Assembly (NCBI GenBank): GCA_024686575.1
Contig: GCA_024686575.1_4863.1
Reading direction: 5' to 3' (one strand)
From: a phage
Length of the DNA stretch: 64,000 nt
Below, piece after piece: positions 15,182 through 64,000 of the stretch. Numbering within the stretch: the stretch's first letter is position 1; each line of letters starts with the position of its first letter. The notes under the pieces are model-generated. The model saw nothing but the letters and a program-made list of their open reading frames with translations. It ran no database searches and was not told where the DNA came from. The position numbers were made by a program, and so were the translations under genes.

Positions 15182-15220
15182 TGAGCATCCCAGTAATAAT
15201 ACCAAAAGAATTATTCACGT

Positions 15221-15235
15221 AGATAATATCTATCT
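15221..15235 (-). promoter_or_regulatory. conserved motif 2 (plus AGATAATATCTATCT; inverted repeat AGATA-N5-TATCT)
   Basis: Exact 15-mer present four times in the window; here about 45 nt upstream of the ATG at 15181. Confidence 0.5.
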
Positions 15236-15286: not shown

Positions 15287-15985
15287 TTAGGGTATTAGGC
15301 GTTGGGCTATTTCGCGGAGTTGGTCGCGGGTTAAATCAGCCAACTTCTGGTCGCCGAAGCCCAACTTCAGACCCAGCTCGTACCCAGCTTGCGGATACGT
15401 GTTCGTGTTTGCTACTGAGAGGAGTGCATCGGCTATCTTTACCATCGTTAACTCGAGAGACGCATACGGGGCGGGGATCGGCTGATTCACGATTTGGTAA
15501 TTATAACGCACTGCGGCGTTATCGTAGTCAAACTCCATCCTTCTGCCGAGAACGTTAAACGACTCCGCAGAATAACTACCAAGTGGGTGATTGGCTTTTT
15601 CCCACAAATCTTTCCGTTCAGTAAACCCAGTCGCGAAGTTCTGACGTATGGTGTCGAATATTTGCGTTGCCTGGCTAGGGTGTATATTTTTCAGCTCATT
15701 GTAGTCGTAGTCGGCGATGGAATATAGAGTGAACACAACACCGTTTATATTTAACTGCGGATAATCCATCCGCAGACTGTCATCACCTTGTAAATGAAGT
15801 TCCCACATCCTTACCCACTGCAATATCGCGCTTACCGCATCGTGACTGAGATAAAAATTAGTAGGTTCTTCAGGATTTTCACGGAAGGGAACAGAGCATT
15901 CCGATACAAAAAAGCCGGCTGCCATAAATCCTCTGCCGTCGAACATAGGCGCAACTAATCTTGATTTTTCTAAATTGATTACCAT
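15287..15985 (-). CDS. hypothetical protein
   Basis: 232 aa; AAGGAG Shine-Dalgarno 8 nt upstream of ATG; preceded by the AGATAGATATTATCT motif and the terminator of the upstream gene. Confidence 0.7.
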   Translation of the reverse strand: MVINLEKSRLVAPMFDGRGFMAAGFFVSECSVPFRENPEEPTNFYLSHDAVSAILQWVRMWELHLQGDDSLRMDYPQLNINGVVFTLYSIADYDYNELKNIHPSQATQIFDTIRQNFATGFTERKDLWEKANHPLGSYSAESFNVLGRRMEFDYDNAAVRYNYQIVNQPIPAPYASLELTMVKIADALLSVANTNTYPQAGYELGLKLGFGDQKLADLTRDQLREIAQRLIP

Positions 15986-16025
15986 TACTGTCTCCTTAAG
16001 TTAAAACCGAACGACTCTCTCCCTA

Positions 16026-16040
16026 AGATAATATCTATCT
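16026..16040 (-). promoter_or_regulatory. conserved motif 2, copy downstream of the 766 aa gene terminator
   Basis: Exact 15-mer 41 nt upstream of the ATG at 15985, immediately after the terminator U-run. Confidence 0.5.
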
Positions 16041-20561: not shown

Positions 20562-20851
20562 TACGGGCAGTTTATGCGTCCTGCCGAGATCAAAAAAAAT
20601 ACGACGAACTATTTATATGCGTGGAATTACCCGAGTGCTAGAACACTCGGGTATAATTATTCCAGGCAAATATTCCTGTTATCTCTTGTTGAGTATTATC
20701 TCACCTCCTAGTCCTTTAATGGTACGGGTGGAAGTCTGCGGTTGGCGGGTAACCTCTTGCAGACGTTGTTGAAAAGCGACTTGTTTCAGCTGTTGCTGAC
20801 GCAGTTGTTGCATAAAGGTATTCATGTTAACCTCTAGGTGGATGTGAATAA

Positions 20852-21799: not shown

Positions 21800-21801
21800 T
21801 T

Positions 21802-22218
21802 TTAGTCCTTAAGAGAGTTAATAAAGTCATCTAAACTAATATCACGGAATGGGAAGTAAACACCTTCAAGCGGGATCGTGTAGTGTTCACTAATGGCACG
21901 TTGCCAATCCAGAACAGTTGCGGGGTAGTTCACAACCTCAAAGTTAGGATGCGTAATTGGCGGAATTGCGTTGTAAACATAGCCGTTGATATTTTTCGAT
22001 GGGAACGCTGCACGGAACTTCGGCTCCATGTAGAACATTTCCTCTTTTACTTCCTGGCCTTCCCAGAAACGATAACCGCCCTTACCGTCAGGAATATAAA
22101 TCGCCTTGTCACGGGGTATAGGGGAATCCTTGGATAGCGGAACAAATCGTCCGTACTGGTCAAGAACCATCCAGTCGGTGTCATTCTTTAAATACTTTTG
22201 GAGCTTCTCATTAATCAT
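21802..22218 (-). CDS. hypothetical protein
   Basis: 138 aa ORF; AAGGAA Shine-Dalgarno upstream of ATG at 22218. Confidence 0.65.
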   Translation of the reverse strand: MINEKLQKYLKNDTDWMVLDQYGRFVPLSKDSPIPRDKAIYIPDGKGGYRFWEGQEVKEEMFYMEPKFRAAFPSKNINGYVYNAIPPITHPNFEVVNYPATVLDWQRAISEHYTIPLEGVYFPFRDISLDDFINSLKD

Positions 22219-22228
22219 TTTTCACGTT

Positions 22229-22264
22229 CCTTAGGCAAAAAATAATACCACCCGTAGGTGGTAT
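22229..22264 (-). terminator. rho-independent terminator
   Basis: Stem ATACCACC/GGTGGTAT followed on minus strand by TATTTTTTG; ends the three-small-gene operon. Confidence 0.7.
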
Positions 22265-22277
22265 TAAATTATCTATA

Positions 22278-22466
22278 CTACTTCTTCCCGAGTTCCCCAC
22301 GGAACTTCGCCAGCTCTTCTTTCCAGTCCGGCTTCGGTAGTGCGCTTTTCGGCCCCACGATAAATGTGCGTTCTGAGGTTTGTGGATTCACCTCTACTGT
22401 TTCGTTATCTTCCACTTCACGAAGCATGATTCCGTTTTTACCATCGTAATTAACTAAAACGCCCAT
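22278..22466 (-). CDS. hypothetical small protein
   Basis: 62 aa; AGGAG Shine-Dalgarno 8 nt upstream; start overlaps the stop of the upstream small gene (TAATG); terminator downstream. Confidence 0.5.
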   Translation of the reverse strand: MGVLVNYDGKNGIMLREVEDNETVEVNPQTSERTFIVGPKSALPKPDWKEELAKFRGELGKK

Positions 22467-22648
22467 TAGTAAATCTCCTGCTGCATTGGAAATACATTAC
22501 CTGTCGGTGAGACAAGTAAAACTTGCGCGGTAACGTGAACGATTTCTTCTTCGTCCTGACGACGAACACCGTTAGTGAGATTATCCCACTCACGTTTAAA
22601 ACGCGGGTGAGATAAGAACTCGGCAAACTCCGTATCAGAAAAGTCCAT
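22466..22648 (-). CDS. hypothetical small acidic protein
   Basis: Track ORF 22466-22666; the ATG at 22648 (MDFSD...) overlaps the stop of the upstream 47 aa ORF as TAATG, suggesting translational coupling. Confidence 0.45.
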   Translation of the reverse strand: MDFSDTEFAEFLSHPRFKREWDNLTNGVRRQDEEEIVHVTAQVLLVSPTGNVFPMQQEIY

Positions 22649-22791
22649 TAGCCGCGACCTGTACACATGGCAACAGAGTTACCGTTATCGATGCACTTGT
22701 TGTAATCTTGAGTTACAGTGATGGACAGTACCGCGAAAGCAACAACAGCAACGATGGCAAAGATGGCACGTTTATGGTTACGAGTTAACAT
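22648..22791 (-). CDS. hypothetical small membrane protein (below ORF-track size cutoff)
   Basis: 47 aa hand-translated ORF MLTRNHKRAIFAIVAVVAFAVLSITVTQDYNKCIDNGNSVAMCTGRG; AAGGAG Shine-Dalgarno 8 nt upstream; conserved promoter-like motif about 55 nt upstream. Confidence 0.4.
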   Translation of the reverse strand: MLTRNHKRAIFAIVAVVAFAVLSITVTQDYNKCIDNGNSVAMCTGRG

Positions 22792-22842
22792 GGCAATACT
22801 CCTTTAGATTAATAGTCGATTGAGTTGATAGATTGTCTTCTA

Positions 22843-22868
22843 TCACCTAGGTAATATATATCTGAAAT
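22843..22868 (-). promoter_or_regulatory. conserved promoter-like motif 1 (minus-strand reading contains TATATATTACCTAGGTGA)
   Basis: 26-nt exact repeat TCACCTAGGTAATATATATCTGAAAT shared with 31344-31369; lies between a terminator and the first gene of a small-gene operon. Confidence 0.55.
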
Positions 22869-22984
22869 TATTTTTATTCAGAGTACACCCTCTATAACGC
22901 TCTCAAACGCGTTTTGAGAGCTTTTATCACTATAGAGGGCGTTCTACCGTTAGAGTGGCTTTAGAAGGTTGTGAGTGCGTTTAG
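22869..22984 (-). other. structured non-coding region with nested palindromes (regulatory element or small RNA candidate)
   Basis: CCCTCTATA...TATAGAGGG encloses the palindrome GCTCTCAAACGCGTTTTGAGAGC; followed by three TTAGAG-type repeats; sits between a terminator and promoter motif 1. Confidence 0.4.
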
Positions 22985-23025
22985 AGGGCTAAAATAAAGA
23001 GACCTGGTCTCACAAGGAGACCAGG
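22985..23025 (-). terminator. rho-independent terminator
   Basis: Stem CCTGGTCTC/GAGACCAGG followed on minus strand by TCTTTATTTTAG. Confidence 0.65.
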
Positions 23026-23032
23026 CACACAT

Positions 23033-23830
23033 TTACATCAAATCCAGGCTCTGTGAGACCGCAACTTCCGGTTCACTGATACCGCTGGTCACTGACAATG
23101 TAAAGCGACGATCGTTAATCACTTCAACTGCTTCGCTCGCACGCAGTGAATACTTGTCGGCGATTGGCAGTACACTGTTATCGTTCTGCGGCGGCAGAAT
23201 CTGTGCCGGGAACGGAATGTACGAGTTGAAAGTGATATACGGACCGACCTGCATCATCGGGAACACTTCGTTCACGTTATTTGACATCCCTTCATCCGAA
23301 GAGATAACGGAGTGACGCAGACAGGCACGCAGGCCAACGGTGTACTCCGGATCGCGCGATTCGCCGATCAGTGCGAAACGGAACACATTGAAATCGTAGT
23401 CGTCTGCAGCGAAGTGTTCTGGCAGGATACGCTGTACGTATTCAGGGTAAGTGGTCACGTCACCCGGAATAACATTCACGGCGAGTTTCTGTGCCAGGAA
23501 ATACGCATTCGCGAAACCATACTGACCCGCCAGCGCGGCTGAAATCGGTGCAGTGGTTACGCAGTGCAGGAACAAGTGATAACCCAGCCCGCCTTTATCT
23601 TCGATTGCCAGGTCCTTCTTACTCTGCACACCGTCAGCAGTATAAATAACTGCCACTGTCTTATCCAACGTCGACGCCATGACAAAATCCAACTGCACCT
23701 CACCGCTCTGCGGTAGTACCTTAACCAGACGATCCCAGAGCTTGGTCGGTTTGGTGAAGTTAGCGGCTTCGTACGCATCAATGTCGAGAACAGTTTGGCC
23801 GGTCATGCGAAAGGTGTGAATCGCTTTCAT
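23033..23830 (-). CDS. hypothetical protein
   Basis: 265 aa ORF; AAGGAA Shine-Dalgarno; terminator downstream. Confidence 0.7.
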   Translation of the reverse strand: MKAIHTFRMTGQTVLDIDAYEAANFTKPTKLWDRLVKVLPQSGEVQLDFVMASTLDKTVAVIYTADGVQSKKDLAIEDKGGLGYHLFLHCVTTAPISAALAGQYGFANAYFLAQKLAVNVIPGDVTTYPEYVQRILPEHFAADDYDFNVFRFALIGESRDPEYTVGLRACLRHSVISSDEGMSNNVNEVFPMMQVGPYITFNSYIPFPAQILPPQNDNSVLPIADKYSLRASEAVEVINDRRFTLSVTSGISEPEVAVSQSLDLM

Positions 23831-23873
23831 TGCAATATTTTCCTTAAGGTTACTTACGGGTCATACTAGATGA

Positions 23874-25187
23874 CTAAGCTGTAAATTTTTCATCTTTGAG
23901 CCAAAGACTCAGTTGTGATTGGGTGTTATAGCGTCCTGATGCCATCGTTTGACCATCGACAGCGGACTGGAACACTTCACCCACCAACGTGCCGTAGCGG
24001 GTATAGACCCCATACTCGTTGGCAAAAACGTATTTTACTGGCATACCGGGATATAGGATGCCGTGCGTTGAACGGTTCCAGGTTGTTTGCACAATCGTAC
24101 CCAGACCCATCTCCAGTTTAGACCGCTGCGGTTTATCGGTATCACTAAAGTGTTTATCAGGATCGATTGGTGCGTTAACCACGCCGCCTGGATACGCAGC
24201 AGGGTCGGCCTGCGCCACAAACTTATCAGGTGTGGTCATACTGATGTCGCCAGGCGTAAATGAACTACTACGCCCATCCAACACACGTACAGACCCTACC
24301 CTGTAACCCGTACCGTGGTTAAGCGCGGCCTGGTCACGGTATTCCAAACTACTGGTGTCGCCGCCACAAATCAGATAGATAACATTACCCGCGATATCGG
24401 TGGTGCGGTCAATGTGAGCAGCCTGTTCACGAGGCAGATTATAGATGACCAGTTTAGGCTTCGTTGTGTTATTAAACTTCAACGAGTCCCAGGGCCGATA
24501 CAGATACCAGCGCTGCAAGTATTGGAAGACCCCAATACCTTTGCTGTAAACACCGTAATGGTTCTGCAGATAATCAAACACGCTTAAGAAGTCTTCGGAG
24601 TCCGGTATAACGATATCACGATATGCCTGCTGTTCTTCCTCGTCGTATTCAATTCCTTTCAACTGCCCCTCTGCAGCCACCCCGTCCGGCAACGTATCCG
24701 CCAGTATCGAGCGTGCCACTGTTAACCCATCGGTTTCGTGGTAGATACCGCCCACTTGACGGTTACGCAGGAACCACATCGACTCATCCATCAGCTCCAA
24801 TGTTACCAAAGCGATAGATTTCTCATCAGACTGACTCAAGAACATCGTCGGTGTTTCCGCGTTGTGGTCGCGGTTATTTATCACGATGCCGCGGTAGTTA
24901 AAGACCCCCGCGATTTTCTGTCCACGACGCAATAACAGCTTTACCTTCAAATCCCCTTCTGCGGACGATGTGATCATTCGCATGTGGCTGTAGGGTATAG
25001 CCAAGGTGAGATGTGTCAATAAACAGATATCGCGCGTAAAGTGACCCGTGTGGATGATAGACAGCATCTTCAACACCGTCACTGGGGCACCGTGCACCGT
25101 GAGGAATATCCCGTAGTCGATAGCCGGTAACCCCCGAGCATTAGCGATGTGACCGTTCGCCATCTGTTGTAACCGACCAAACGACAT
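23874..25187 (-). CDS. hypothetical protein
   Basis: 437 aa ORF in tightly packed minus-strand array 23033-28561. Confidence 0.7.
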   Translation of the reverse strand: MSFGRLQQMANGHIANARGLPAIDYGIFLTVHGAPVTVLKMLSIIHTGHFTRDICLLTHLTLAIPYSHMRMITSSAEGDLKVKLLLRRGQKIAGVFNYRGIVINNRDHNAETPTMFLSQSDEKSIALVTLELMDESMWFLRNRQVGGIYHETDGLTVARSILADTLPDGVAAEGQLKGIEYDEEEQQAYRDIVIPDSEDFLSVFDYLQNHYGVYSKGIGVFQYLQRWYLYRPWDSLKFNNTTKPKLVIYNLPREQAAHIDRTTDIAGNVIYLICGGDTSSLEYRDQAALNHGTGYRVGSVRVLDGRSSSFTPGDISMTTPDKFVAQADPAAYPGGVVNAPIDPDKHFSDTDKPQRSKLEMGLGTIVQTTWNRSTHGILYPGMPVKYVFANEYGVYTRYGTLVGEVFQSAVDGQTMASGRYNTQSQLSLWLKDEKFTA

Positions 25188-29936: not shown

Positions 29937-30482
29937 TCATTGAACCATACGCTGCGCGTCGTAAGACGGTGCGAGGTTCACAACACGACCATGTAGAGTT
30001 TGCTCTGCTTCGTCTAACAGGTCATCGCGTACGAGCGTCTGGCGAATGTAAAGCGTTGCACGTATCCCCTCAGCGCTGTAAGGCGCGGTGACCATTTTGG
30101 TCTGGTAACCATCAATCGTCACCGGAACACGCTCACCGTTACGACGAACAAAATGCTCCAACTTACCGTAATCGTGACTACAGACTTTAGACATGTCGGA
30201 CAATCCCGCATCGATTAAGTATTTCCAAAGACCGATGATGCTCTCCGAGCAATGTTTGTTAAGTTCACCTTCGACGACAAACTCGTACCCACCGTACGTT
30301 AGAATGTGCGTGCCTGCTGCACGACGATCACATTCTAAAATGAATACGCCCAGACCAATCATAACTGGACGCGGGATTGTCATGACACTGGTACTAAATT
30401 GCAGCGTAGTAACCTCATCCCAAAGGGGCGATGATTTATCGTTACTTACGCTAATAATATCTTTAAGATTGACACGTTTCAT
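29937..30482 (-). CDS. hypothetical protein
   Basis: 181 aa ORF; AAGGAG Shine-Dalgarno 9 nt upstream; terminator downstream. Confidence 0.65.
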   Translation of the reverse strand: MKRVNLKDIISVSNDKSSPLWDEVTTLQFSTSVMTIPRPVMIGLGVFILECDRRAAGTHILTYGGYEFVVEGELNKHCSESIIGLWKYLIDAGLSDMSKVCSHDYGKLEHFVRRNGERVPVTIDGYQTKMVTAPYSAEGIRATLYIRQTLVRDDLLDEAEQTLHGRVVNLAPSYDAQRMVQ

Positions 30483-30540
30483 TATAAATACTCCTTAAGA
30501 TTAATGGTCGATTACATACGGTTTCAGGCTAACGTAATAT

Positions 30541-31302
30541 TTACGCTGCTGGTTCTTCAGCGGTTTTCACTTCAACTGGTTTCATCAGCGAGTTCGCACA
30601 GTCGAAGATAGCATCCAGGAAACCACGGAACGGCTTCATGGCTTCACGCTGGGCGTTCTGACGTTCTTCTTCAATTGCTTCTTCTTGCGCCTGAATTTCT
30701 TCAGCAGTCAGCTCCGGGTGTTCCGTCATGCTTTCTGCCAGGGTCATCACTTTCGGCTGCGCATTCCGAATCGGAATACGGCGGATGACCTTGGTGATAT
30801 TCCCGAGCTTCATGCCACCCAGCGCGGTTTCGAACAGCGTACCGAAATCTTGCAGTGGGTCTTCGCTGATTTCCAGTACCGCCGGAGTCGCAACCAGACC
30901 AAAGGCAATGACCAATTCAACAGCAGTGTCGGTGACGTGCACAGCGAACGGGGTGTCTTCCATCTGCAGGTAATTGTTACCATTATAGGTCACCGGAATG
31001 AATTTGATTTCTTCCCCTTTCTTCAGGCGCAGTGTGTCGACTGCGGCTTTGTACTGAACTTCGTACAGTTCCGGTTTAACACCGTCAACGTTATCCAGTG
31101 TAAAGAGCAGGTCGCCAACCGCCATACGGCGCGGCAGTTTGCGTTTGTTGATTTCGCGCAGCCAGACTTGTAAGCCGGTGAATTGAATTGGGGACAGTAT
31201 AATTTTAAAGCCGTTGGTTGCTTGCAGGATAGCACCGTCGTCTTCGCTACGTTCGATAGAGCCATTAGCCAGAGTAAGCAGATTGATAGTTTTCATTTTC
31301 AT
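30541..31302 (-). CDS. hypothetical protein
   Basis: 253 aa ORF; AAGGAA Shine-Dalgarno; conserved promoter-like motif about 50 nt upstream of ATG. Confidence 0.7.
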   Translation of the reverse strand: MKMKTINLLTLANGSIERSEDDGAILQATNGFKIILSPIQFTGLQVWLREINKRKLPRRMAVGDLLFTLDNVDGVKPELYEVQYKAAVDTLRLKKGEEIKFIPVTYNGNNYLQMEDTPFAVHVTDTAVELVIAFGLVATPAVLEISEDPLQDFGTLFETALGGMKLGNITKVIRRIPIRNAQPKVMTLAESMTEHPELTAEEIQAQEEAIEEERQNAQREAMKPFRGFLDAIFDCANSLMKPVEVKTAEEPAA

Positions 31303-31343
31303 ATTCCTTAAGTGATAGTCGGTTAAAAGATTACCAATGCAAT

Positions 31344-31369
31344 CTCACCTAGGTAATATATATCTGAAA
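31344..31369 (-). promoter_or_regulatory. conserved promoter-like motif 1, second copy
   Basis: Identical 26-mer, with partial conservation of the next 15 nt; located after the paralog-1 terminator and about 50 nt upstream of the ATG at 31302. Confidence 0.55.
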
Positions 31370-31385
31370 TCTTTTCTAATCTGAG

Positions 31386-55340: not shown

Positions 55341-57446
55341 TTACAACTCAATTACCACAGCGGCTCCTAGGTCATCGTACAACGATGCCGGGATTTTGTA
55401 CTCGGTATAAAAACCAACGCGATCGATATTCCCCTGCTGTCCTTCAAACAACAACATCGGAATTGCCGAGCGCAAACTAATGAGCGTGTTGTGATCGACA
55501 AACCGTTTCCCTGTAGCGTTAGTAGAATCCTCACTGTCAAATCCTACTGCCGGGAACGGATTGGTTGGCGACTCTACACGAGATATCGCCAACATAATCG
55601 CAATGTGCGTCATCGGTATACCACTCAGCTTACGCTGGATATACTTAAACGTGTCCATCAACGCATAAGTACACTGTTTCTCTGTAGCACCACCCATTTC
55701 AACCAACGTCACCGGTTTCACACGACCTTGTTTCTTGTTCAGCTTCACAGTCGAGGCTGTGTTGATGATTTCCACAATGTCTTCGTTCTTATCGGCAGCA
55801 ATCGAACGGAGCTTGGTTTCTAAGCCGGCTACGAACTCCGCCATCGATTCAGAACGGTTGGTGTAGACCAGGACCGGGTGTTTCGGGTTCCATCCTTTTA
55901 AGGGGATTTCTACCGTCTTCTTCTCGATACGAATGTTCGCTCGTTGTTTCAAGAAGTAGTGCAGGAACGGTTTAGAGAAGTTCCCACAAACACCCATTCG
56001 CACATCGATAGAATCCGCAGCGATTATCTGCCCATCTTCTAAACGACGTTGGAAAGTTAAGTCGGTGATTTCTGGTAATGCCGTTTCATCAATTGCATCG
56101 AGATCTTCATGATACGCAATCTGGCTCAGCTCCGAATAAACTTTGTCGGTAACAACCAACTCGTATTCTGACCAATTCCCACGCTGTGGTTTTGGCAGCA
56201 AGCACAACCCTTTCAGAGAGTTATGTTTGTATTCGGTCATATACTCACGCATACGTGGGGTGAGTACCAGGTTGAGCAGATAACGCAAGAAGTCAAGGTG
56301 CTTGGTAGAGAGAATTCCCTGTGTACCCTTTTCCGAGATGGACGTGGATGCCAGGTGACCTGGTGACGTACCTTCAGAGAGGTTATAAATCAAATCCCCC
56401 ATACAGGTCGCACAGATGGACTGATTCGCCATCTCTTTACAGGTCATGGCACTACGGAAGACCAGCGGTTTGCCAACCAGGTCTGCGTATCCGCCTTTCT
56501 CAAATCGCAACCACGGACCATTATCGCCTTCTAAACGATAACGCATCCCCACCATCGCTTTATAGGCACGCTCATCCAGCTGCGTATCCTTAAACGTGTA
56601 GCGGTGTGCGTGTGTTGTACCGCAGTCGTCGTACGTGAAATACATCAGTACGTTTGCTGCCAGCTGCAGTTTACGTGAGGCGTATTCTGCTTCGGCAATC
56701 TTGTCAGTGTTGTACAGGTGGGAACGTGAAGTTGCACCAGATTCTTTCAAACGCGAAATAACCGAATGCATTCCGGTAAAGAAGCCTTCCCACACCTGAT
56801 TGGTGTATACACGTGAGTCAATTTCTGACGTTTTGCCGCGCACGAACGCTTGCAGTACCTGGTTCATCTTCACGGTACCGTCCAGTACCGACATTACGAC
56901 TGGGTTATACCGCAGCGCAGGGTCTTTGAAGATTTTCTCGATAAGCTTATACGCTTCTTCAACCATATCCTGACCATCTTCATCGTAGCCAGTAGGATAC
57001 TGCACTTCCCACTGACGGATGAGTTCGAAGTTCGGGTGGTCGTAGATCTCCATCATCGTATCAAAGTCGATTGTCGTACAATAGGACAGCAAGTTCTTCA
57101 CTGTCATGTTGAACGCATCGGCGTAGACATGTTGACTCAGGATATAACGCGTTTCAGCAAGGTCGACACCTGCTTTACGGGCCAGTACCGCTGCTTCCGA
57201 CATAAAGTCCAGATGCAGGTCATCTGTTGCTACCTGACCTGGACGATACGCCATGGTCGATGGAGTGGGCACCTGCGGATACAGACGCGACACACCCCAA
57301 TACGGCCAGCTGAGTTTGATGTGGCGACTAGACATTTCCAACGACTTACCATCGTCGAAAGTCACGTAATAACGCCCGCGTAGTTTCCACACCTGATCAG
57401 AGTTAAGCATACGCAAATCACGTACGTGTACAGAACGACCCGCCAT
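55341..57446 (-). CDS. multisubunit RNA polymerase beta-prime-like subunit, C-terminal part
   Basis: 701 aa; ASTSISEKGTQGILSTKH matches the beta-prime trigger-loop signature AAQSIGEPGTQLTMRTFH; preceded by a Cys cluster (C-x8-C-x2-C) as in the C-terminal Zn site of beta-prime. Confidence 0.7.
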   Translation of the reverse strand: MAGRSVHVRDLRMLNSDQVWKLRGRYYVTFDDGKSLEMSSRHIKLSWPYWGVSRLYPQVPTPSTMAYRPGQVATDDLHLDFMSEAAVLARKAGVDLAETRYILSQHVYADAFNMTVKNLLSYCTTIDFDTMMEIYDHPNFELIRQWEVQYPTGYDEDGQDMVEEAYKLIEKIFKDPALRYNPVVMSVLDGTVKMNQVLQAFVRGKTSEIDSRVYTNQVWEGFFTGMHSVISRLKESGATSRSHLYNTDKIAEAEYASRKLQLAANVLMYFTYDDCGTTHAHRYTFKDTQLDERAYKAMVGMRYRLEGDNGPWLRFEKGGYADLVGKPLVFRSAMTCKEMANQSICATCMGDLIYNLSEGTSPGHLASTSISEKGTQGILSTKHLDFLRYLLNLVLTPRMREYMTEYKHNSLKGLCLLPKPQRGNWSEYELVVTDKVYSELSQIAYHEDLDAIDETALPEITDLTFQRRLEDGQIIAADSIDVRMGVCGNFSKPFLHYFLKQRANIRIEKKTVEIPLKGWNPKHPVLVYTNRSESMAEFVAGLETKLRSIAADKNEDIVEIINTASTVKLNKKQGRVKPVTLVEMGGATEKQCTYALMDTFKYIQRKLSGIPMTHIAIMLAISRVESPTNPFPAVGFDSEDSTNATGKRFVDHNTLISLRSAIPMLLFEGQQGNIDRVGFYTEYKIPASLYDDLGAAVVIEL

Positions 57447-59683
57447 TATTTATCCTCCCGAATTGGACGCACTAATTCAAAACCTTCACAGCGATGGATG
57501 TTACGTATCATCCTGTCAATCTGCGAATCACCCATTGGCAGTTTCTTACGATCGACCAGCACCCCTGGATTGGTTGGTGTTGGCGAGTTATACAGCCCCG
57601 TTACGATCGCACGGTGTACCGCAGGGTTATTAGCGCGGTCATGAGTTTCGGGGAAGTTGCCCGGACCAAAGCCGTCGGTAAGACGCTGCTCGGAAGGACC
57701 ACCCCACTTCAACCCTTTCAGGTTAATCGGATATGAACCACGTCCTTGGTTGGATGCATCAATACAACCCAAATAGTTCGTGTACATCGACGAGATACTG
57801 GAGAACTCACGACCGGTTTTATCCAGGCGCAGAGTCTCTACCATGCCGACGTAAAACTGGTTCTTCGTCCACTCTTTCTCACCCTGATAGTTAGTAATCA
57901 GTAGCTTAGACTTGCGTGGTGCATACTCGCCTAGAGCACGGCAGATTTCTACCTGGGTAGCATTCAATTCGTGGGGAAGCCAGATACGAATCGTGAAGTC
58001 GTAAATCTCTTTAAAGAGTTCCAGACGTGACCCAGTATCCGGGTGACTGGCATTGAGATAGAATGTCCAGCGTGGGTTATAGCGATCGATATAGTCCATC
58101 AGGATTTCCCAGGCTTCATCAACCTGGTTGGCGGCAAGTAAAGGTTTCAACCGCATCTTCAACTGCTCGGATGCAGCAGACCAATACATGTGGAACAGCG
58201 CAGCATAAGTCGAACGACGAATTACGGCGTTCATGGAACGAATGACATGCACACGTTCTCCGAACTCGTTAATCGGCATTTCTTCATCAGGCCGCACTGC
58301 GCCCACGATACCTTTTGTACCTGAACGGTCGGTGATTTTCGATGAGACGGTAACTGGGATTGGATAACGTACCACGATGCGTATCGTGTAACTACCAATT
58401 GGGTCCCAGAGACCACGCTGAACCGGCTGCGCCAGTTTGTTTAACACGTTCTTATCAGCAGAACGGTTATACTCGCCTTTACGCATGGCTTCATCGTATT
58501 CACGACCAATCTCTTCACGGAAGTCGTTATAGACTTCATACGTCTCAGAACAGAACGCCTTGTCAAGAATCTCAAACGCTTTCGGTGACCAGACGATATT
58601 CTTGTCCTTGGACATCGCAAAATAGAACCGTACGATATCATTGTAAAAACGTTTCAAAGCGTTCGCGTAGTGATCTAACTCGCGTTTGTTCTCTTCGGTA
58701 CATGCGATATTGTTAACACCACGATCGCATTTGGTTTCGTCCCGCCATACCTGAATATCAACGACACGAGAACCGGTACGTTCCATCTTTTCAAAGTCGC
58801 CAGCCAGTCGCGCTTTGTAATGCTCAGGGTCGGCATCAACATACTCACAACGGTCGAAGTGCGGAGAGACATGTTGTGTTTCACCTACGTGCGAGTCAAT
58901 GGCTGCCCATAGCTTATCGAAACGGCGCGCGGCAATAACCAACCCATCATCACGAATTGCCTGTCCTTTATTGGGCAGGTACTGTGGTCGACGAACGCCA
59001 TCAATACCCGTTGTCCCATACGTATCAAGCAGGTACTCGTCGTCGCGCAAGGTAAAGTCGATTGCACGCAAACCATAAGCGTGCATCGCTTTCGCTGCAG
59101 TTTCGGAGATGGTGTACGAGTCCTCGATAATGTCCGGGTGCGACATCGTCACGGTGTGCAGGTTGACCCCATCGACAAACTCACCGTCTTTCTGTGCCGG
59201 CAGCACGGTAAGCATTTCATCTTTTTCCAGGTGCTGCGTCTGCCCGCGCAGCAACGCCTGAAGTTTCCCAGTAGCCTCTTTCTTAGACGAGAAAATGTTA
59301 TCGTGGTTGGTGTAATACTTAATATCGATTACATCAATCATCACTTTGCGCTGGTTGGTTAAATCTGCGCGCGTGAAGAAGATAACATGTTGGAGCGGTT
59401 CGTGATCCCCTTCACGACCATAGCGTGCAAAAACAGCTGCACGAGTAACACCTTCTTTGGTTGTGTAACTGCACACGGTACCACTGTCTTCCACGATATC
59501 GTTAAAACAATAATCGTGGTAGTTCACATCAGCGCCGGTAAAATGGATAGTCGGATCTGGATTGTCCAGTGGTACCGCCGACTTCATATGTCCACCCACC
59601 ATTGAGGCACGTGCCCCAGATACGCCAGTGATATTCACCTCACGGTCAGCAACGCTTGACATGAGTTCGACTGGTGTTTTCAT
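57446..59683 (-). CDS. multisubunit RNA polymerase beta-like subunit, C-terminal part
   Basis: 745 aa; ITDRSGTKGIVGAVRPDEEMP matches the beta signature [20 protein letters not shown]; C-terminal GGPSEQRLTDGFG resembles GGQRFGEMEVWA; stop overlaps the start of the beta-prime-like gene. Confidence 0.7.
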   Translation of the reverse strand: MKTPVELMSSVADREVNITGVSGARASMVGGHMKSAVPLDNPDPTIHFTGADVNYHDYCFNDIVEDSGTVCSYTTKEGVTRAAVFARYGREGDHEPLQHVIFFTRADLTNQRKVMIDVIDIKYYTNHDNIFSSKKEATGKLQALLRGQTQHLEKDEMLTVLPAQKDGEFVDGVNLHTVTMSHPDIIEDSYTISETAAKAMHAYGLRAIDFTLRDDEYLLDTYGTTGIDGVRRPQYLPNKGQAIRDDGLVIAARRFDKLWAAIDSHVGETQHVSPHFDRCEYVDADPEHYKARLAGDFEKMERTGSRVVDIQVWRDETKCDRGVNNIACTEENKRELDHYANALKRFYNDIVRFYFAMSKDKNIVWSPKAFEILDKAFCSETYEVYNDFREEIGREYDEAMRKGEYNRSADKNVLNKLAQPVQRGLWDPIGSYTIRIVVRYPIPVTVSSKITDRSGTKGIVGAVRPDEEMPINEFGERVHVIRSMNAVIRRSTYAALFHMYWSAASEQLKMRLKPLLAANQVDEAWEILMDYIDRYNPRWTFYLNASHPDTGSRLELFKEIYDFTIRIWLPHELNATQVEICRALGEYAPRKSKLLITNYQGEKEWTKNQFYVGMVETLRLDKTGREFSSISSMYTNYLGCIDASNQGRGSYPINLKGLKWGGPSEQRLTDGFGPGNFPETHDRANNPAVHRAIVTGLYNSPTPTNPGVLVDRKKLPMGDSQIDRMIRNIHRCEGFELVRPIREDK

Positions 59684-59713
59684 TCGTAAATGCTCCTTTT
59701 GGTTACCTCGGTA

Positions 59714-59728
59714 AGATAATATCTATCT
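59714..59728. promoter_or_regulatory. conserved motif 2 in divergent intergenic region
   Basis: Exact 15-mer between the RNAP beta-like gene start (59683) and the plus gene start (59750); could serve either or both. Confidence 0.5.
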
Positions 59729-63203: not shown

Positions 63204-64000
63204 TTAAGAATTAAACCATTCAACTTCTTCTAACTTGCGACGTGCATTCAACACCATAAACTCCGCCAGGCTATTGTGCAGTGACAAGTGAGGTATATAG
63301 TTTGGCTGATCCGTCTCACACTTCAGCAGCGCAGCTGCTTCTGGTGTAGCCCTGAGATGGAACAGATACGGGTTGATGTGATCCTTGTGTAACAAGGTCA
63401 GTGATTCCCGTGGTGTAGATTGCGGTTCGAGATTACGCGGGTTGCGATACTCCTGAAGATAATATCTATCTAAATCTGCTTTGAGTTCAGATCGAATTGG
63501 GTCGGCTGCATAACCGGCAGACATCTCAGAACGCACCATATTGCAACTTAACAGTTGCGCAACGTCATACATTCCATAATTGAGATAAGTTGCCTGTGCT
63601 AACGCCATGCCGTAGCGAAACGCTTCTGGTCCACATTCGGTATACGTCTTATAATGCGCGCTACGATGGAGTGCTAATGCGACTAACCATTCGTGGAGCG
63701 TATAGACAGGACCGTCGTGTGTTGCCAGTTGCGAATCAATCAATAACTTAACATCTGCTGGAGCGGCATTATCCAGGCGCATTGTTTTCAAGAAAGAGCG
63801 GTATTCTTTAAATACGTACTCGGTACGGACGTATTCTTTCATCTGGGCAGGAGAACGTGCCTGCACCAAATCCATGGCGTTTATCTTACCCTTTTCGCCA
63901 TTGAATATCACACTTTCTGGATGCGCTTTTAACAGCACCGGCTGGTTAGAGATTTTGTTTGCAAAACCTGTTTCAATCTCTTGTTTAACCAGAAAATACA
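63204..64000 (-). CDS. hypothetical protein, 5-prime partial (continues beyond window end)
   Basis: Track ORF starts at a GTG at 63938, but the frame stays open to the window end; contains an internal copy of the AGATAGATATTATCT motif. Confidence 0.55.
   Translation of the reverse strand, partial: YFLVKQEIETGFANKISNQPVLLKAHPESVIFNGEKGKINAMDLVQARSPAQMKEYVRTEYVFKEYRSFLKTMRLDNAAPADVKLLIDSQLATHDGPVYTLHEWLVALALHRSAHYKTYTECGPEAFRYGMALAQATYLNYGMYDVAQLLSCNMVRSEMSAGYAADPIRSELKADLDRYYLQEYRNPRNLEPQSTPRESLTLLHKDHINPYLFHLRATPEAAALLKCETDQPNYIPHLSLHNSLAEFMVLNARRKLEEVEWFNS
63457..63471 (-). promoter_or_regulatory. conserved motif 2, intragenic copy
   Basis: Exact 15-mer inside the coding sequence of 63204-64000 (encodes DRYYL), about 270 nt upstream of the next gene start at 63191. 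Confidence 0.35.

Follow-up and report, generated by a model that had tools for sequence, protein, structure and literature searches.

The 64,000-nucleotide (nt) stretch of phage DNA analysed here (NCBI GenBank assembly GCA_024686575.1, contig GCA_024686575.1_4863.1; hereafter the window) contains the 26-mer TCACCTAGGTAATATATATCTGAAAT in exactly two copies, at 22843-22868 and 31345-31370. We consider it probable, at roughly 0.75, that this 26-mer is the core of an early promoter of the phage's own, read by an injected virion multisubunit RNA polymerase (RNAP) like that of phiKZ, and that its first copy heads a unit of three small genes, homologues of gp66, gp67 and gp68 of Salmonella phage SPN3US. 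The identity of the polymerase, the start site and the early timing we infer. Two subclasses of the promoter can be told apart, the 26-mer being the consensus of one of them, and the element continues past the 26-mer with a 5' hairpin and a conserved leader; it was under-described in the preliminary description of the window, which had been made from its letters and its open reading frames (ORFs).

The phage and the locus

When the region 21800-23900 was compared with sequence databases, matches were found in 37 phage records, the best being Enterobacteria phage SEGD1, Salmonella phage SPN3US and Proteus phage 7, each with 98.7% identity over the full length. Judged by these matches the window is from an SPN3US-like Salmonella jumbo phage (Seoulvirus), presented as the reverse complement of the SPN3US record (NC_027402). 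Seoulvirus phages including SPN3US are related to phiKZ and encode both a virion and a non-virion multisubunit RNAP, the SPN3US virion subunits being gp42, gp218, gp240, gp241 and gp244 and the non-virion one gp35 (PMC5105663). A gene of the window at 57446-59683 carries an RNA_pol_Rpb2_6 domain and lies outside the five virion subunits. Both of the polymerases that go with promoters of the phiKZ type can thus be taken as encoded, given the identity with SPN3US and the presence of this gene.

On the minus strand, the locus runs from the terminator of the upstream gene through a spacer of about 120 nt to the motif, then to an AAGGAG sequence 8 bases before the ATG at 22791, the three ORFs and a terminator. 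The ORFs correspond to ACQ60_gp200, gp199 and gp198 of SPN3US (positions 65485-65998), originally gp66, gp67 and gp68 and annotated as hypothetical.

A family of intergenic, co-oriented motifs

No match to the 26-mer with up to three mismatches appeared in 100 dinucleotide shuffles of the window. The exact repeat reported in the preliminary description is confirmed, its second copy lying at 31345-31370, one base away from the 31344-31369 given there. Read on the minus strand the 26-mer is ATTTCAGATATATATTACCTAGGTGA, with the 8-mer TATATTAC inside it at 22858-22851. By itself this 8-mer shows no enrichment across the window (two found against 1.1 expected), and a longer motif was therefore used in the pattern searches, which were carried out locus by locus and over the whole SPN3US genome.

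With up to three mismatches, GATANATATTAYCTASGTGA has 15 sites in the SPN3US genome, where about 0.07 would be expected. All 15 are on the plus strand, which carries most genes, and 14 are intergenic, 25-134 nt before co-oriented start codons. A looser pattern adds two further plus-strand sites, one intergenic and the other beginning in the last four bases of the upstream gene, so that SPN3US has at least 17 motif sites, all on the main coding strand and 16 of them counted as intergenic. The window has six, all on the minus strand (15215, 16020, 22843, 31345, 59708 and 63451). In IMG/VR the 22-nt core of the subclass called A below was found 38 times, only on 13 contigs of 107-246 kb and in at most six copies per contig; in every contig with more than one copy, all copies share a strand. 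The preliminary description had proposed a search of the whole genome, and had named a location mostly inside coding DNA with no positional preference as an outcome that would speak against a promoter. The opposite is seen across SPN3US and the window: the family is strand-consistent, intergenic and placed upstream of starts.

Alignment of the 15 SPN3US sites reveals two forms. Subclass A, TTTCAGATATATATTAC(C/T)TAGGTGAG, includes both copies of the 26-mer and precedes gp5, gp55, gp66, gp101, gp135, gp180 and gp249, while subclass B, AGATAGATATTATCT, precedes gp9, gp22, gp30, gp34, gp76, gp125 and gp209. At the gp66 unit, the predicted subclass A promoter occupies 22843-22880 on the minus strand and, as judged from the motif alignments, comprises an A-rich upstream part AAAAATAATTTCAG, the core ATATATATTAC, the spacer CTAGGT and a conserved GA. 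Two side observations may be added. The subclass B motif contains a perfect inverted repeat, AGATA-N5-TATCT, which could have an alternative role as the binding site of a dimeric protein, and SPN3US gp101, downstream of a subclass A promoter, encodes a helix-turn-helix DNA-binding protein.

Correspondence with phiKZ early promoters

The first 40 kb of phiKZ contain TATATTAC six times, in each case on the plus strand, intergenic and 35-54 nt before an ATG. Aligning these six sites with the two in the window shows ATTT-A, TATATTAC and a TG 5-7 bases downstream to be invariant. This supports the suggestion of the preliminary description that TATATTAC is an element of phiKZ early promoters, since all six phiKZ sites are upstream of an ATG and their flanks align with those of the window sites. 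A full-text literature search for the 8-mer was uninformative, and a search of the literature on these phages found no promoter reported for SPN3US or its Erwinia relatives and no transcript data for SPN3US-like phages.

Published descriptions of such promoters agree with what is seen here. In early promoters of phiKZ an extended -10-like box is joined by a T-rich stretch upstream of -19 (PMC8244752). The promoters of the virion RNAP (vRNAP) of phiKZ-related phages are extended and AT-rich, transcription starting 6 nt after the element in phiKZ and phiR1-37, and the AR9 early promoter is AAATATATATTAT-(6N)-G+1 (PMC5312081). In all jumbo phages that encode RNAPs, a conserved motif of this type can be recognised ahead of the presumed early operons (PMC7598289). 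In the present case an extended, conserved AT-rich element is found, with TATATTAC in both copies and CAGATAKATATTAY conserved in the 15 SPN3US sites and in eight orthologous loci (see below), and it is multi-copy, intergenic and co-oriented with genes, as phiKZ-type promoters are.

The genes that follow the motif are also informative. One subclass B site precedes gp34, whose homologue is the RNA_pol_Rpb2_6 gene of the window, and another precedes gp22, directly after which comes gp23, annotated as an RNA polymerase beta subunit. Predicted promoters are thus found before genes of the non-virion polymerase, at the gp34 and the gp22/gp23 sites. Since the non-virion polymerase of phiKZ is made from early promoters (PMC13282480), this placement fits an early promoter of the virion polymerase.

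Applying the rule that transcription starts 6 nt after the element predicts starts at G 22844 for the gp66 unit and at G 31346 for the second copy. The former, on the minus strand, is 7 nt after the C of TATATTAC; it is set by analogy and uncertain by about 2 nt. In the site alignments the G at the predicted start is invariant or nearly so, and it is here that the hairpins begin.

A hairpin at the predicted transcript start

The predicted transcript of the gp66 unit would open with the hairpin GATAGA-AGACAA-TCTATC (22827-22844, minus strand), picked out by a hairpin scan and by a compensatory change: in Asesino and phiEaH2 the same hairpin reads GAGAGA...TCTCTC, with one pair changed on both sides. 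We counted perfect stems of at least 5 bp starting at +1 to +3 and compared the counts with those in shuffled sequence. Among subclass A sites, orthologues included, 14 of 16 have such a hairpin (shuffles: mean 1.4, maximum 6 in 2000), and in subclass B one of eight does, which is the chance level. The 35 unique subclass A sites from the 13 IMG/VR genomes give a similar result, with 22 hairpins against 5.4 ± 2.2 in shuffles (maximum 13 in 1000) and 14 different stem sequences among the sites that have one. The profile of hairpin positions has its peak at +1 to +4 and a shoulder at -5 to -1, and the median folding z-score is -3.0. At the phiKZ sites examined, a stem of at least 5 bp starts at +1 to +3 in only two of six. 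A consensus fold of the +1 region had been sought with RNAalifold from an ungapped alignment, which yielded no structure because loop lengths differ between sites; the position-anchored count took its place.

A 5'-terminal hairpin with no or almost no unpaired 5' nucleotides, as in the ompA leader, hinders 5'-end-dependent attack by RNase E and RppH. The position of the present hairpin at the very 5' end suggests protection from decay starting at that end. Three or four T residues follow the hairpin at many of the IMG/VR sites of subclass A (for example GTAATCTTTTAAC and CAATGCTTTTATAAC), a run that the gp66 copy does not have. Such T-followed hairpins could act as a weak promoter-proximal pause or attenuator, instead of or beside stabilising the 5' end.

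A conserved leader box

Between hairpin and gene, a pattern search locates a conserved leader box, AATCGACTATTA, at 22810-22821 on the minus strand, immediately 5' of the Shine-Dalgarno sequence AAGGAG (22799-22804). Its consensus is AATCGACYATTA, in which A..CGAC.AT is invariant across four phage genera. The pattern AWYCGACYATY occurs 15 times in SPN3US, 14 of them on the plus strand. Ten of these boxes are 18-45 nt before an ATG (nine at 18-31 nt, the tenth, in the gp30 leader, at 45 nt), and nine of the ten are within operons headed by subclass A sites. The box also stands before every gp66 homologue examined and before each extra gene of the phiEaH2 cluster. Being kept between genomes that are saturated at synonymous sites, the box is taken as constrained, and it is perhaps a translation or processing signal of early messages. 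Boxes with no promoter of their own are seen some 20-30 nt before internal genes of subclass A operons, for example at 30502-30513 (minus strand) of the window, before the gp56 homologue (29937-30482); further ones in SPN3US include those at 57146, 166644, 167592 and 224197.

The second exact copy of the 26-mer, also subclass A (31345-31370, minus strand), shows the same succession of elements. A terminator at 31428-31403 precedes it, and after it come the hairpin GAGATTGC-ATTG-GTAATCTT (31346-31327), the box AACCGACTATCA (31313-31324) and the gp55 homologue (30541-31302).

The unit in related phages

Eight loci were compared, from Erskinevirus (Asesino, phiEaH2), Wellingtonvirus (Kwan), Machinavirus (Machina, Caitlin) and divergent Seoulvirus (pEa_SNUABM_29, STsAS, SPAsTU). 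At all eight exactly one motif heads the cluster of small genes. No gene lies between motif and gp66 homologue in SPN3US-like phages, while the others have one to three extra small genes there. Since gene content varies and the motif stays, the slot appears to be plastic and its control region to be kept. The gp65-gp66 stretch is, in other words, a variable slot of zero to three extra small genes, one of which is annotated 'putative DNA ligase' in SPAsTU. In STsAS the slot has a 1.1-kb unannotated gap with a motif site inside. Variation extends to the unit itself, Kwan having an unrelated gene in place of gp68 and Machina and Caitlin being devoid of gp67 and gp68.

The three small proteins

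The gp66 homologue (22648-22791, minus strand, as are the other two) encodes 47 amino acids with a basic N-terminus, one predicted transmembrane helix and a conserved tail. It is followed by the gp67 homologue (22466-22648), acidic and soluble, with 60 residues from its ATG (66 in the program-made ORF list, which begins it at an upstream GTG), and by the gp68 homologue (22278-22466), also soluble, with 62 residues predicted to form four strands and a C-terminal helix. Both the gp66/gp67 and the gp67/gp68 junctions are TAATG, a one-base overlap of stop and start, and relatives keep the coupling as TAATG or as TAA-(1-2 nt)-ATG (TAAGATG, TAACATG); the overlapping, conserved junctions are those of a translationally coupled operon. 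After the last gene, the coding strand has a G+C-containing stem-loop of the intrinsic-terminator kind at 22266-22243, with ten pairs followed by TTTTTTG.

Much of this had been anticipated. The preliminary description had claimed three short ORFs with TAATG junctions closed by a terminator, all of which were found again. It had predicted a transmembrane helix in the 47-residue ORF, and residues 9-27 do form a 19-residue hydrophobic stretch with a mean Kyte-Doolittle value of 2.67, above the standard hydropathy threshold. Its statement that the proteins have no recognisable motifs agrees with a Pfam search in which the three ORFs and their neighbours had no match. The shortest ORF is already annotated in SPN3US and is hence not new.

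Pairwise ratios of nonsynonymous to synonymous substitution (dN/dS) are 0.03-0.40 with synonymous sites near or at saturation, and insertions and deletions come in multiples of three. By these measures gp66-68 are genuine genes under purifying selection. Homologues were found in 60 (gp66), 46 (gp67) and 41 (gp68) records, only among jumbo phages of Salmonella, Escherichia, Proteus and Erwinia, and in PHROG each of the three falls in a family with no assigned function. Word-indexed searches of large protein collections returned only near-identical copies or close orthologues. An exhaustive profile search with gp67 found only orthologue-like proteins of about 60 residues, one fragment and three repeat-rich proteins that we regard as spurious. 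Compared with SPN3US, gp66 and gp68 are identical and gp67 has four amino-acid and four synonymous changes over its 60 residues, which give no sign of positive selection; the gp67 protein is 100% identical to that of Salmonella phage SaP7.

The gp66 N-terminus is MLTRNHKR, and its near-invariant tail, DYNxCxxxGNSxAxCTGRG, has two invariant cysteines nine residues apart. From the basic N-terminus and the positive-inside rule the tail is expected to be periplasmic, where a disulphide would be possible. The protein would then be a single-pass inner-membrane peptide with its N-terminus inside, its C-terminus outside and a periplasmic tail bearing Cys-X9-Cys. AlphaFold models gp67 as two helices and a small hairpin (pLDDT 71, pTM 0.32) and gp68 as four strands and a C-terminal helix (pLDDT 69, pTM 0.34). 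Both models are of moderate confidence, and a fold search with them gave no significant match, the best E-values being 0.16 in BFVD and 2.3 in the PDB. The likeliest class of function for gp66-68, we infer, would be an accessory one such as takeover or exclusion, acting early at the host envelope or in the cytoplasm.

A 48-residue ORF at 20679-20825 was considered as a gp66 paralogue and is not one. In several SPFM records (LR535908, LR535912 and LR535913 among them) tblastn matches the gp66-68 genes as two or three separate fragments, and annotation of the genes is missing or wrong; these breaks look like frameshift errors of assembly rather than biology.

Alternative explanations

Could the motif be the promoter of the non-virion polymerase, of middle or late class, so that gp66-68 would not be early? 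The unit does sit between virion and head genes, and with two subclasses one could belong to another temporal class. Yet in phiKZ the late promoters have only TATG at the start and the middle ones only a weak AT-rich motif at -24, and neither class is predictable by bioinformatics (PMC7598289). The present motif is long, strongly conserved and aligned with the phiKZ TATATTAC sites, and a variant of it precedes a gene of the non-virion polymerase, whose transcription must come before that enzyme. We therefore regard this explanation as unlikely. Recognition by the host sigma-70 RNAP, with TATATT as a -10 box, is very improbable. TATATT agrees with TATAAT at five of six positions and the host is an enterobacterium, but a consensus scan upstream of gp66 found no sigma-70-like site on the coding strand. 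No -35-like hexamer stands at the proper spacing, TTTCAG being only 3 nt from TATATT, and conservation continues downstream through CTAGGTGA, which a -10 box does not need. Moreover, phiKZ shows the identical architecture, and Ceyssens et al. in 2014 are said to have found its development to be independent of host transcription.

Some features would also suit a cassette for recombination or regulation, resembling the PeSL of T4-type phages and spread by copy-and-paste along with small genes. The genes between promoter and gp66 homologue vary among relatives, the leader box recurs before each gene inserted in phiEaH2 and before every gp66 homologue, and terminators are often just upstream of sites. 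PeSL cassettes combine a terminator stem-loop and an early promoter beside small variable genes in plastic regions (PMC4122927). Here, the second copy and several SPN3US sites do have a terminator a short way upstream; ahead of the first copy there is instead a compound hairpin, which has no T-run on this strand. The early promoter of the sigma-70 type that marks PeSL is not seen, there being no sigma-70-like match and the architecture being like that of phiKZ. Boxes flank inserted genes in relatives, but the sole indel aligned base by base with SPN3US, at 15287-15985, is internal to an ORF and away from the motifs. Such a cassette is in any case compatible with a promoter role, and that it should be the primary nature of the motif seems to us quite unlikely. 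Finally, the very short length of the three ORFs and the result with Pfam might suggest random reading frames within a leader or spacer that codes for nothing. Against this are dN/dS values of 0.03-0.40 at saturated synonymous divergence, in-frame indels and conserved stop-start coupling, as well as orthologues in 41-60 phage records of several genera and a PHROG family for each. As far as such evidence reaches the idea is refuted, and we find it scarcely credible.

Several points weigh against an early promoter of the virion polymerase in the form proposed. A perfect hairpin is absent from 13 of the 35 unique subclass A sites. The start is placed by analogy; with some hairpins pairing 2-5 nt farther upstream, the true +1 could lie a few bases away. 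The operon is placed amid head and other structural genes, outside any obvious early block, and subclasses A and B may differ in timing or regulation. For this phage group the start site and the timing of expression are predictions, and searches by sequence, profile and fold gave no lead to a function for the three proteins, the host takeover or anti-defence suggested in the preliminary description included.

Proposed course of expression

If the 26-mer is indeed an early promoter, the injected virion multisubunit RNAP would recognise, on the minus strand, an A-rich stretch whose last bases are TTTCAG, the AT-rich ATATATATTAC and the six bases CTAGGT, and would start at G 22844. The transcript would open with the hairpin at 22844-22827, followed by the leader box (22821-22810) and a strong Shine-Dalgarno sequence. 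Translation of gp66, gp67 and gp68 would be coupled through the TAATG overlaps, and transcription would stop at the 22266-22243 terminator, for a message some 600 nt long. More speculatively, subclass A as a whole (promoter, 5' hairpin and AATCGACYATTA box) might be a portable early-expression module conserved in at least four jumbo-phage genera. Its box would then be a signal specific to early messages, such as a site of binding or processing that governs their translation or decay, as well as a point of gene gain and loss, and gp66-68 a membrane-anchored takeover or exclusion module in such a slot. This broader picture we put forward as tentative and, taken together, doubtful.

The kind of element described is established, namely an AT-rich early promoter of an injected polymerase, in a phiKZ-related phage, before small genes. 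Since, according to a review, motifs of this sort are discoverable in all of these phages (PMC7598289), the SPN3US consensus may have been published before. Three features we did not find described, namely the division into subclasses A and B, the hairpin that begins at the transcript start and exists in many compensated variants, and the box tied to subclass A operons; they are modest additions, and the accepted picture of phiKZ-like transcription is unchanged. What results is a testable promoter model for SPN3US, the genetic model of the nucleus-forming jumbo phages of Salmonella and Erwinia, consisting of a consensus, two subclasses, predicted starts and about 17 early units. Were the promoter assignment true, expression would depend on the motif bases ATATATTAC. 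Were the +1 hairpin and the box functional, they would add a post-transcriptional layer to early control and could be parts for engineering. The three conserved small proteins, one of them predicted to be membrane-inserted, form a compact set for takeover or exclusion screens.

Further features of the window

The gene upstream of the unit, the homologue of SPN3US gp65 (23033-23830), ends in a hairpin and T-run resembling an intrinsic terminator (23002-23026, minus strand, as are the features below unless stated). Between this terminator and the promoter is a very stable compound hairpin at 22879-22949, CCCTCTATA...GCTCTCAAA-ACGCG-TTTGAGAGC...TATAGAGGG, with no T-run on the coding strand; the 171-nt spacer, including the gp65 terminator hairpin, folds at z = -5.35. 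On the plus strand its inner stem together with a TTTT scores as terminator-like (22899-22921). The gap that holds the compound hairpin is the one occupied by extra genes in relatives. A search of the 64-kb window against Rfam at gathering scores gave no match.

The remaining motif sites of the window, located by pattern search, are of subclass B or similar to it. The site at 15215-15235, AGATAGATATTATCTACGTGA, is upstream of the gp76 homologue; that at 16020-16040 is 34 nt upstream of a 232-residue ORF (15287-15985); and that at 59708-59728 is 24 nt before the RNA polymerase beta-like gene at 57446-59683, the homologue of SPN3US gp34. A weak subclass B-like site at 63451-63471 is within the ORF 63204-63938 and is the sole intragenic one. 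The 232-residue ORF, on the minus strand, belongs to phrog_15414 (function not assigned); its neighbours are the major head gene and the gp76 homologue, and a subclass B motif flanks it at either end. At the equivalent place SPN3US keeps both motifs, the first 25 or so codons and the 3' end of the gene, but the middle is absent, so the SPN3US copy is the remnant of an internal deletion.

Comparison with known systems

The nearest parallel is with the early promoters of phiKZ itself, which share the identical core TATATTAC, a T-rich or ATTT-A part about 10 nt upstream and a TG with its G seven bases past the core, and which are likewise multi-copy, intergenic and co-oriented with the next gene. 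The two differ in that the conserved block is longer here (CAGATAKATATTAY with CTAGGTGAG) and comes in two subclasses, subclass A having in addition the +1 hairpin and the leader box. The 5' untranslated regions, 45-64 nt from the predicted starts, are also longer than the 31-40 nt of phiKZ (PMC8244752). AR9 has a nearly identical AT-rich core (compare ATATATTAT of subclass B) and equal spacing to the G (PMC5312081). It is, however, a Bacillus phage with uracil-containing DNA and unrelated flanks, and its starts have been mapped experimentally whereas those here are predicted.

PeSL resembles the present element as a short conserved regulatory cassette near small variable genes of unassigned function in plastic regions. 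Its promoters, in contrast, are read by the host polymerase, and its stem-loop precedes the promoter and serves as a terminator, unlike a hairpin at the transcript's 5' end. Phage N4 offers another comparison, in that an injected phage polymerase goes together with a short promoter-associated hairpin. The vRNAP of N4 has a single subunit and recognises a DNA hairpin located ahead of the start, whereas the hairpin described here, at +1 to about +20, is inside the transcribed region. In that position it is reminiscent of 5'-terminal stabilisers of mRNA such as the ompA leader, which similarly are hairpins with few or no unpaired 5' nucleotides, a likeness by which it may have a corresponding function.

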